IMG/VR virus record: IMGVR_UViG_2778261227_000009
Location: 1 to 4,587 of that record
Strand: one strand, 5' to 3'
Origin: a virus
Lineage: Duplodnaviria; Heunggongvirae; Uroviricota; Caudoviricetes
Length of the DNA stretch: 4,587 nt
Below are positions 2,754-4,250 of this stretch, in pieces. The first letter of the stretch is position 1. The number at the start of each line of letters is the position of its first letter. The notes beneath the pieces are model-generated. The model searched no databases. It saw nothing but the letters and a program-made list of their open reading frames with translations, and had not been told where the DNA came from. The position numbers and the translations under genes were made by a program.

Positions 2754-2777
2754 ATAAAAAAACCGCGAGAACGCGGT
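2754..2777 (-). terminator. Rho-independent terminator downstream of the 176-aa ORF.
   Basis: The minus-strand RNA would be ACCGCG-UUCU-CGCGGU followed by UUUUUUAUAAAUU: a 6-bp GC-rich stem, a 4-nt loop and a U6 tract. It lies 35 nt after the ORF stop at 2813-2815. Confidence 0.6.
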
Positions 2778-2812: not shown

Positions 2813-3343
2813 TTATTTAATACATTCTTTTGCTTGCGCATAATAAATTTTATGAGTATTAGCAAGCTTAACGAAGTTATACTTAACTGCCCCTAACAGG
2901 GTTCCAACTCTTGTATGCCCTTCCATTAAATGAAGCCCTGTTGTATTACTTTTCAGCAAAGCTCGATCTATAAAAAATGGAGGTTTGCACCATGTGCCAA
3001 AATTACACCAATGCGCTTTTATTTCATCATCCATAAATACATCGCCTTTACGGGTTGTGAAATCTTCAACGACCTCATGCAAAAAATCAGGGTAAGTAGC
3101 ATTATCCCCGATAGTTAAAAAATTTTTAGTGGGAAGTTCAATCAATTTCCATTCGATTTGGTCAATATTAAGATTCCCATAAAGCTCCTGAAATCTGTCA
3201 TAACCTGCCAATCCATAATAAATCTCCTGAATTACAGGAGTGGGTGCGGCGATAGAATATTGCTCACGAAGTATTCTTTCAGCCTCAGGAGCTTTAAATA
3301 TGGGTCTTTCTGAGAAAATAGGCAAAAGATCTCGGTATAACAT
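2813..3343 (-). CDS. Hypothetical protein of 176 aa encoded by an AT-rich, compositionally foreign gene (cargo/moron). Its function is unknown.
   Basis: This is an ATG-initiated 531-nt ORF with GGGGA 7 nt upstream of the start. Manual counts give about 30% GC for 3121-3180, against about 55% for 1381-1440 in the neighbouring methyltransferase gene. The translation has no hydrophobic signal peptide or membrane segment. An intrinsic terminator follows the stop codon. I do not recognise the protein family. Confidence 0.65.
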   Translation of the reverse strand: MLYRDLLPIFSERPIFKAPEAERILREQYSIAAPTPVIQEIYYGLAGYDRFQELYGNLNIDQIEWKLIELPTKNFLTIGDNATYPDFLHEVVEDFTTRKGDVFMDDEIKAHWCNFGTWCKPPFFIDRALLKSNTTGLHLMEGHTRVGTLLGAVKYNFVKLANTHKIYYAQAKECIK

Positions 3344-3372
3344 CCATATCCCCGTGTAAGAAAAAATAATTT

Positions 3373-3392
3373 AACCCGCTCGGCGGCGGGTT
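3373..3392 (-). terminator. GC-rich stem-loop (AACCCGC / GCGGGTT, 7-bp stem) between the candidate promoter and the 176-aa ORF. It may be a tR'-like terminator or a 5'-leader hairpin.
   Basis: A perfect 7-bp inverted repeat is visible in the sequence. On the minus strand it is followed by AAATTATTTTTT, so the U-tract is not directly adjacent to the stem and terminator strength is uncertain. Confidence 0.3.
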
Positions 3393-3437
3393 CTTGGACT
3401 TATCAACGGTAGACATACAAAGCCCATCGTTGGGAAA

Positions 3438-3466
3438 ATCTTATCCATGTTTTTTGAGAAATGCAA
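3438..3466 (-). promoter_or_regulatory. Candidate sigma70 promoter immediately downstream of Q, a possible pR'-like late promoter: -35 TTGCAT, 17-nt spacer, -10 TAAGAT on the minus strand.
   Basis: The minus-strand sequence is ATGCTTGCAT TTCTCAAAAAACATGGA TAAGAT TTTCCCA, read directly. It begins about 31 nt after the Q stop codon, which is where lambdoid pR' normally lies. This is a consensus match only, with no experimental support. Confidence 0.3.
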
Positions 3467-3497
3467 GCATCATGTCGCCATCTTCGGTGAAAATCAC

Positions 3498-4250
3498 TTA
3501 TCTCGTCACCTTTCTCAATTGTGCTTCAGCGTAAGCTTCTTCCTGCCAGCACTTTGTAACCAGTTTATCAATGACATCTGCATACCCCTTGTACCACTGA
3601 TAATCCGTCAGGTTCGGTACCAGTTTCTGGACATGATGCCGCGCCAGTGTGGTCGGTAAACGGCTAAACCGATTTCCATTACAACGCCCACAAATCTTAT
3701 AAACCGGCGCGCCATGAAGCCGGGTTCTTTTTTCATCCAGGACAATACCTTTACCCTTACACCCTCTGCACGCTGTGCTGACTTCTCCCTTACCATGACA
3801 ATGCTGACATAGTTCCTTCACCCACTCTTCCTTGATAACAGATTCCCCGCTTCTGGAGTGTTTTACCACCTCGCGCAATACATCATGAAATCCAGTACCA
3901 GCACAATGCTCACAGCGAGCCTTACTTGCCGCAGACCTGGAATAATCAGCAAATGCAAAATTCACAAGGTAAGGGATGATCTGTAACCGGGTTTCTTCAC
4001 TCAATTTATTCAATGTCGGGTTATCCAGTGCCATCGCGTAATTGAGCAGACCTTCAATCGCAAACTGAGGATCCTGAACACCAACTTTTGCCAGAAATAA
4101 GGCAAAACCCAGTGGTGCTTTCGACTGCACCATCCCCTGCGCAGCCATCACATCCGTAATCGTTAAACCACCAGAGCCTGTCGCCGGTGCGTCATCGCTC
4201 AATTTTGGAGATTTTGGGGAGTAATATTTTGGTAAGGCTTCAAGGTTCAT
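3498..4250 (-). CDS. quuQ: Late-gene antiterminator Q (QuuQ-like, about 250 aa) with four CxxCxGxG zinc-finger-like repeats.
   Basis: The protein is Cys/His-rich with four DnaJ-like repeats (CEHCAGTG, CQHCHGKG, CRGCKGKG, CGRCNGNR). It sits immediately upstream of the cargo and lysis genes, as Q does in lambdoid phages. The track ORF (3498..4292) begins with a GTG codon and would overlap the upstream gene by 29 nt. The first ATG, at 4248-4250 (MNLEALPKYY...), is preceded by GTGGAGAACGAGC as a Shine-Dalgarno-like sequence and leaves a 13-nt gap to the upstream stop. The symbol is given by analogy to K-12 Qin. Confidence 0.7.
   Translation of the reverse strand: MNLEALPKYYSPKSPKLSDDAPATGSGGLTITDVMAAQGMVQSKAPLGFALFLAKVGVQDPQFAIEGLLNYAMALDNPTLNKLSEETRLQIIPYLVNFAFADYSRSAASKARCEHCAGTGFHDVLREVVKHSRSGESVIKEEWVKELCQHCHGKGEVSTACRGCKGKGIVLDEKRTRLHGAPVYKICGRCNGNRFSRLPTTLARHHVQKLVPNLTDYQWYKGYADVIDKLVTKCWQEEAYAEAQLRKVTR

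Follow-up and report, generated by a model that had tools for sequence, protein, structure and literature searches.

The 154-nt interval between the Q antiterminator gene and a 176-amino-acid open reading frame (ORF) is very probably a late promoter and Q-utilization region (PR'/qut) of the lambda type, a reading that draws on comparison of the locus with its relatives. Taken as a whole, the locus is best explained, with reasonable but far from complete confidence, by a genuine PR'/qut, a relic of the terminator tR', and a gene for a ParB/Srx-like protein carried on the PR' transcript, the last of which we infer from the arrangement of the elements. The window, by which we mean the whole 4,587-nt stretch that was analyzed, corresponds to the part of a lambdoid prophage that leads from Q to the lysis genes, and its minus strand is the coding strand of every gene. 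In gene order, its main features are as follows.

4581-4264, minus strand: DUF968/HNH-like gene, first in gene order
3498..4250, minus strand: Q antiterminator gene, 250 aa, assigned from matches to PF03589 and PDB 7UBM
3497-3344, minus strand: the 154-nt interval studied here, between Q and the 176-aa ORF
2813..3343, minus strand: 176-aa ORF, AT-rich cargo with a predicted ParB/Srx-like fold
2756..2777 (stem 2777-2762), minus strand: intrinsic terminator ACCGCG-ttct-CGCGGT followed by a T-run, assigned from its fold and scores
3' of terminator 2777-2762, minus strand: 64-aa ORF, then an N6/N4 DNA methylase gene
1229-1213, minus strand: canonical terminator GGCCAC-gtcag-GTGGCC followed by T5, in the gap between the methylase and holin genes and also annotated in the record of phage SfV
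3' of terminator 1229-1213, minus strand: P21-type holin gene, DUF1327 gene, and SAR-type lysozyme gene

An 861-nt stretch around the interval is 100% identical to E. coli strain C311, and parts of this 861-nt query are present in approximately 1,500 of 5,426 complete E. coli genomes. Two terminators, 2777-2762 and 1229-1213, lie between PR' and the late genes; with the second of these present, late transcription must pass at least two terminators after the 176-aa ORF. A scan of the whole window against Rfam at E values of up to 10 returned nothing but one spurious long noncoding RNA match, and a search for tRNA and tmRNA genes found none.

On its profile and structure matches, Q is a member of the Q-lambda family. 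It matches Pfam family PF03589 with an E value of 1.8e-53, and phmmer matches it to the Q-lambda structure PDB 7UBM (E = 1.7e-38) over residues 1-120 and 160-250; PF03589 corresponds to the Q-lambda family, PF06323 to Q82, and PF06530 to Q21 (PMC9388147). Compared to Q-lambda, approximately 40 residues are extra (residues 121-159, window 3774-3890, minus strand). They add a second CXXC pair of the CXXCXGXG type to the zinc-ribbon arm, which brings the total to four CXXC motifs and constitutes a zinc-finger pair that lambda does not have. The extra region matches the DnaJ-like family DnaJ_CXXCXGXG with an E value of 3e-7, which is below the Pfam threshold. An 82-type assignment of Q and PR' was considered and rejected, as Q belongs to PF03589 and the 82 pause element (extended -10-like, with GCC at +15 to +17) is absent.

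The elements assigned within the interval, from the end of Q to the start of the ORF, are as follows.

3500-3498, minus strand: Q stop codon TAA
3461..3466, minus strand: -35 hexamer TTGCAT of the putative PR', 31 nt 3' of the Q stop codon and in register with TTGACT of lambda
3444..3460, minus strand: 17-bp spacer TTCTCAAAAAACATGGA, candidate Q-binding element (QBE) by position and conservation
3438..3443, minus strand: -10 hexamer TAAGAT of the putative PR', with T-12, A-11, and T-7 invariant in 63/63 sequences, including TAAATT of lambda
3423..3431, minus strand: predicted +1 (A at 3431) and sigma70-dependent pause element, a 9-mer identical to that of lambda
3404..3431, minus strand: conserved start of the transcript (+1 to +28), which, judging by fold and pairing, may form a 5'-terminal RNA hairpin
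3373..3392, minus strand: hairpin AACCCGC-cgccga-GCGGGTT (+40 to +59), counterpart by homology of the tR' stem in relatives
3359..3372, minus strand: junction AAATTATTTTTTCT replacing the T-run of relatives, left edge of the cassette, assigned from T-tail and terminator scores
3349..3353, minus strand: Shine-Dalgarno sequence GGGGA, separated by 5 nt from the ATG at 3343

An earlier note, made from the sequence alone, had placed a TTGCAT-N17-TAAGAT promoter match 31 nt past the Q stop codon and a perfect 7-bp stem-loop approximately 45 nt further on. Both are borne out: the promoter occupies 3466-3438 of the minus strand with a spacer of 17 nt, and the stem-loop occupies 3392-3373, 45 nt past the -10 hexamer. 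By itself, the promoter match is at chance level. It agrees with the consensus at 3/6 plus 4/6, or 7/12, positions, which falls below the cutoff of 9/12 used in our promoter scan, and 82 sites of 7/12 quality were observed in the window compared to 97 +/- 12 in shuffled sequences. Since a 7/12 match is unremarkable alone, the case for the promoter rests on homology, and it is the strict register with the lambda PR' across relatives that lifts the match above chance. Aligned without gaps, lambda reads TTGACT-N17-TAAATT-TGACTC-AACGATGGG and the window reads TTGCAT-N17-TAAGAT-TTTCCC-AACGATGGG.

The comparison drew on 100 loci encoding the Q family (17 genomes, 80 viral contigs, and 3 phage records) plus lambda (L101), and it covered 63 distinct promoter sequences with Q proteins that are 35 to 100% identical to the Q of the window. 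Eight positions are invariant among these 63 distinct relatives (T-12, A-11, T-7, A+2, A+5, T+6, G+8, and G+9), and the T, T, and G of the -35 hexamer are kept in 61, 62, and 60 of the 63, respectively; most of these relatives are closely related and the counts are not independent, with other genera and lambda also included. Among the invariant positions are contacts of sigma70 region 2 in the -10 element and in the -10-like pause element, namely, T-12, A-11, T-7, A+2, and T+6.

Two other features lie near the promoter. A block 5' of the -35 hexamer, GATGGCGACAT at 3471-3481 (minus strand), is conserved with GATGGCAACAT of lambda and sits approximately 10 bp nearer to the -35 hexamer than the lambda block does. 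The plus strand carries a promoter-like site at 3410-3439 (TAGACA-N18-GAAAAT, in which a TG precedes the second hexamer) that points toward the 3' end of Q, antisense to PR'. This site was rejected as an antisense promoter, with 3 such sites found compared to 6.4 expected and with a -10 region that varies among relatives.

The pause element AACGATGGG at 3431-3423, which the earlier note does not mention, begins 6 nt after the -10 hexamer, the same distance as in lambda. It comprises AACGAT (+1 to +6) followed by GGG (+7 to +9). Its first A aligns with position 44587 of lambda (L101), which we take to be the start of the 6S RNA, and homology with lambda accordingly puts +1 at window position 3431. 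In lambda, the GGG is a discriminator-like element of the pause (PMC5001585), and we assign the parts of the pause element the roles that have been described for them (PMC5001585 and PMC9388147). The predicted pause at +16/+17 falls at window positions 3416/3415.

The initial transcribed region, CTTTGTATGTCTACCGTT, is conserved even at loci where Q is only 40% identical and can pair with AACGATGGG. We tentatively propose a 5'-terminal RNA hairpin in which +1 to +10 pair with +18 to +27, with -1/+28 as a further pair if transcription includes the base that precedes +1. It folds at -7.7 kcal/mol, and 95% of cells are paired compared to 31 to 49% in slid controls; the changes among relatives are mostly one-sided and the covariation is modest, with one G-C to A-U change in L069. 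A similar hairpin can be formed by +3 to +24 of lambda (-6.8 kcal/mol), and our guess is that such a structure might protect the 5' end. The z-score for folding of the whole leader is only -1.67 and gives no evidence of structured RNA beyond the two hairpins. A leader peptide starting from the ATG at +16 (3416) was rejected, as many relatives have GTG or ATA there. One locus, L042 (IMG/VR 2565956633_000004), is a natural recombinant in the region approximately 60 to 160 nt past the Q stop codon: window-type Q and promoter extend up to AACGATGGG and then continue directly into the lambda 6S RNA sequence. In this recombinant, the shared 9-mer appears to have served as a crossover point between otherwise different late leaders.

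The QBE of Q-lambda sits between the -35 and -10 elements (PMC4914094), and the spacer of the window shows the pattern that would be expected of a QBE, making it a candidate for this function. Loci with a Q of at least 64% identity retain its motif TTCAAAAA..TGG, and those with a Q of 35 to 44% identity have another sequence in its place, so that the spacer covaries with Q divergence and the transcribed region does not. In L019, for example, with a Q of 44% identity, the spacer matches at 8/17 positions, yet +1 to +28 match at 27/28 positions. Overall, the locus resembles the lambda Q cassette in its Q family, its -35/N17/-10/N6 geometry, its AACGATGGG element, and its lysis genes downstream in the same orientation. 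In contrast to lambda, its -35 hexamer is weaker (TTGCAT), its spacer, and hence the candidate QBE, has a different sequence, and the TTGACT -35-like element that lambda carries just 5' of the pause element is missing. The extra residues of Q fall in the zinc-ribbon arm, which touches the QBE in lambda, and the extra CXXC region could explain the different spacer sequence.

The hairpin at 3392-3373 is a G+C-rich stem-loop of 7 perfect pairs, 5 of which are G-C, with a folding energy of -10.6 kcal/mol. The homology shared with 36 phages and over 1,400 E. coli genomes extends from Q across the hairpin and stops exactly at 3373. The records of phage SfV and of Ayreon annotate the hairpin as a putative rho-independent terminator. 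Among relatives there are 27 distinct versions of the stem-loop, and nearly all of them keep the pairing; examples include CCCGCC..GCGGG, CCTCGC-TTCG-GCGGGG, ACCGCC..GCGGT, and CCTCGC..GCGAGG. Almost all of approximately 60 relatives combine a paired stem with a run of five to nine T (four in one relative) and a positive score; one exception is L058, for which the hairpin search misfired. Terminator scores in relatives range from +2 to +39 and T-tail scores from 3.8 to 5.5; the terminator score is a re-implementation in the style of d'Aubenton-Carafa with ViennaRNA energies and is reliable for relative comparison only. Hairpins were detected in each sequence separately, and covariation counts from the MAFFT alignment are blurred by loop-length differences between groups. 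The paired stems, T-runs, and positive scores point to a genuine tR' at approximately +60 in these relatives, compared to +194 in lambda.

The window departs from its relatives at the last base of this hairpin. In SfV, mEp460, Ayreon, and the Stx2c-converting phages with the same Q, the Q-PR'-hairpin module is 91 to 94% identical to that of the window, as measured in the intergenic region up to the last base of the hairpin; these phages carry GCGGGTTTTTT(T), whereas the window carries GCGGGTTAAATTATTTTTT and then the 176-aa cassette. The native tail 3' of the hairpin begins TTAAATTA. After GCGGG the window reads TTAAATTATTTTTT, with no U-tract, a point that is absent from the earlier note, and the terminator scan picked up the hairpin through a lenient tail window on this sequence. 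The T-tail score of 2.37 and the terminator score of -25.6 are both outside the ranges of relatives, and only the three sequences bearing the ORF score negative in this comparison. Two U's adjoin the stem and are able to pair with two A's at the stem base, and the tail is UUAAAUUAUUUUUU; three or more U's adjoining the hairpin are a reported requirement of E. coli RNA polymerase (PMC3993855).

The same junction is found in 90/90 complete E. coli genomes carrying the ORF (at least 95.8% identity) and in 13/13 E. coli-type viral contigs carrying it. In one sublineage (L118-L120, with an ORF that is 93% identical), the stem additionally carries a C-to-A mismatch, as would fit with relaxed constraint. 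Given the lost U-tract, the hairpin of the window should probably not be called tR' but a weak terminator or the relic of one. The earlier note had described the position and layout expected of a lambdoid late promoter, Q-utilization site, and tR'. That description holds for the late promoter/qut region and for a hairpin homologous to the tR' of relatives, but probably not for a working tR' in the window, where the hairpin lacks a U-tract.

The cassette has a GC content of 0.36 to 0.37, compared to 0.47 to 0.51 in its flanks, and homology to cargo-less relatives resumes within approximately 12 nt after terminator 2777-2762. This terminator has a stem of -9.2 kcal/mol, a T-tail score of 4.6 to 5.05, and a terminator score of +22 to +27, and it is probably what in effect gates the lysis genes. 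The 29 nt between the hairpin and the ATG contain no promoter-like site. Searches of Pfam, NCBIfam, and PADLOC with the 176-aa ORF gave no match. Its structure was modeled with confidence, and the best structural matches are all of the ParB/Srx fold (PadC, sulfiredoxin, pNOB8 ParB-N, KorB, and DUF262/GmrSD); an EGHTR motif is invariant in the ORF.

The first downstream gene had been described as foreign and not a lysis gene. It is indeed an AT-rich, non-lysis ORF, but its family is habitually found right after Q/PR' in phages whose Q belongs to an unrelated family, and it is not an arbitrary arrival. Nor is a non-lysis gene after tR' a departure, as had been supposed, for it is normal in this phage group: approximately a dozen different sequences, as judged by eye rather than by systematic clustering, abut the hairpin, and a 64-aa ORF and a DNA methylase gene precede the holin gene in relatives.

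These elements suggest the following sequence of events, the first part of which is drawn by homology. RNA polymerase with sigma70 would start at PR', with +1 at 3431, and would pause at approximately +16/+17 when sigma region 2 re-binds the -10-like AACGAT plus GGG. Q, sitting on the spacer of PR', would load at the pause and yield a terminator-resistant polymerase able to transcribe the methylase, holin, and endolysin genes. The ancestral tR' stem would survive as the hairpin at +40 to +59, with the U-tract having given way to the AT-rich 176-aa cassette when the latter became attached immediately 3' of GCGGGTT. The hairpin would now be weak or dead, with the terminator of the cassette at 2777-2762 gating the lysis genes in its place, and the short PR' transcript of approximately 60 nt in relatives would have become an mRNA of approximately 675 nt.

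PR' is constitutive in lambda, and lysogens of Stx phages make a short PR' transcript, StxS (PMC7547250). On this basis, a lysogen would be expected to produce the ParB/Srx-like protein in the absence of Q, from a late promoter that would likewise be constitutive, and to make more of it with Q after induction. The suggestion, made earlier, that the cargo captured constitutive or late-promoter-driven expression would fit this picture and would be strengthened by the missing U-tract. The start site, the pause, termination, and Q dependence are all predicted here. We consider it about an even bet that the terminator is crippled and the ORF expressed without Q. The tail UUAAAUUAUUUUUU is all A/U and would form a weak RNA:DNA hybrid, by which partial termination may still occur.

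The strongest competing explanation is a working tR', in which the hairpin ends most PR' transcripts, perhaps aided by NusA, so that the ORF would be the first Q-dependent late gene and the later terminator a second barrier. Such a tR' would have a perfect stem that is stable at -10.6 kcal/mol and is followed by 14 nt of A/U with a distal run of six U, and Klebsiella-type homologues of the ORF do sit behind an intact terminator. However, the two U's adjoining the stem are fewer than the reported minimum of three, and the T-tail score of 2.37 is outside the range of all 60 relatives. In addition, L118-L120 tolerate a stem mismatch, and in the Salmonella and Hafnia lineages, the ORF is preceded by a degenerate terminator or by none. 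We regard a working tR' as unlikely, albeit one to be reckoned with.

That the hairpin is neither a terminator nor a neutral relic but was kept for a role in the 5' untranslated region of the ORF, such as mRNA stabilization or control of translation, appears improbable. In its favor, 90/90 E. coli genomes have the hairpin at a distance of 29 nt from the ATG, and the window-specific AAGTCCAAG can pair alternatively with +6 to +12, as it does in the minimum-energy fold. However, these copies are at least 95.8% identical, and retention may reflect recent ancestry only; the variant in L118-L120 weakens the stem, and the hairpin does not overlap the Shine-Dalgarno site. That the promoter hexamers and the hairpin are functionless chance features of an intergenic region, as the commonness of 7/12 matches (82 sites in the window versus 97 expected) might suggest, is so improbable as to be effectively refuted by the comparative data, given the strict lambda PR' register with an identical pause element, the invariance of sigma-contact positions at loci with Q only 35 to 100% identical, and the compensatory variation of the hairpin.

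A relic tR' followed by cargo on the PR' transcript would have an independent parallel in related loci. The ORF family is small, with 23 matches that are restricted to Enterobacterales. Homologues in Salmonella, Klebsiella, and Hafnia are 49 to 53% identical and are always the first gene after a Q gene, and the Q at these loci belongs to the Q82 family (PF06323), which is unrelated to the Q-lambda family. The PR' of the Salmonella loci reads TTGCAA-N17-TATATT, with TGATATCAT at +7 to +14, GCC at +15 to +17, and U at +25, and these elements match the published description of the 82 PR' (PMC5001585 for the 82 pause element). The terminator 5' of the ORF is intact in the Klebsiella-type loci (score of +14 to +23), degenerate in Salmonella (10 loci), and absent in Hafnia. 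A clear terminator 3' of the ORF is present in the E. coli, Salmonella, and Klebsiella (L105/L134) types, and the downstream hairpins of Hafnia-type loci, L132, L133, and L135 score below zero. The Klebsiella-type ORF, sitting behind an intact terminator, indicates that the ORF family can be present without need for terminator loss.

We tentatively suggest, at somewhat less than even odds, that the ParB/Srx-like family is a recurrent "pre-terminator" cargo of the constitutive short PR' transcript in two unrelated Q families, with the proximal terminator erased or degraded and the gate moved behind the gene. If this is true, lysogens would acquire a gene that has no promoter of its own but is expressed independently of Q, and more strongly upon induction. 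The 82-type cassettes of Salmonella, Klebsiella, and Hafnia are like the window in that the same cargo family comes first after Q/PR' and a terminator then follows, and they differ in their PF06323 Q proteins and in their pause element, TGATATCAT-GCC at +7 to +17.

The lambda 6S RNA and StxS (PMC7547250) are short, stable transcripts of constitutive late promoters that end at the first terminator, and StxS is in addition an Hfq-binding RNA. Relatives of the window would similarly give an RNA of approximately 60 to 65 nt with a terminator hairpin and a U-tail. The leader studied here differs from both in that it has no sequence similarity to them and no Rfam match, and, with the U-tail that such an RNA needs missing from the window, it would instead be the 5' untranslated region of a coding mRNA. 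The cassette also invites comparison to the morons of lambdoid phages, which reportedly (Hendrix, Juhala, and colleagues) consist of a gene with its own promoter and terminator. It resembles morons in its distinct composition, its presence/absence polymorphism, and its own terminator. Unlike them, it has no room for a promoter of its own (29 nt) and so would depend on PR'.

The PR'/qut assignment is in itself routine, and the hairpin is already partly annotated in the SfV record; the terminator-erasing junction and the Q-linked cargo family are a modest novelty. The assignment extends the lambda-type pause element AACGATGGG to many E. coli and Shigella prophages, including Stx2c-converting phages. 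Deletion of the U-tract of tR' together with a new terminator behind the gene would allow expression in the lysogen of a cargo that has no promoter of its own, and, if true, this would be a simple route for turning an always-on late promoter into a lysogenic expression signal. The ParB/Srx-like protein, the gene for which is present in 90 complete E. coli genomes, including that of IHE3034, would then be a likely lysogen-expressed function.

Several observations on the distribution of the module were made alongside this analysis. The Q-PR'-tR' module also occurs in fifteen Stx2c-converting phages (LC7278xx records), with an intergenic region that is 92% identical, and toxin expression in these phages is presumably under a lambda-type cassette. 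The tR' hairpins of L135 and L133, both Q82-family loci, are almost identical to that of SfV (L001), with AAACCCGCCGATGAGCGGGTTTTTT in the 82-type L135 hairpin compared to GAACCCGCCGCTGAGCGGGTTTTTTT in the SfV-type hairpin, and the terminator may be a shared recombination linker that moves cargo between phages. Finally, a contig labeled as part of a Veillonella parvula metagenome-assembled genome (L006; JAGZPX010000007.1) carries an Escherichia-type Q/PR' module with a Q that is 94% identical and is probably misbinned.
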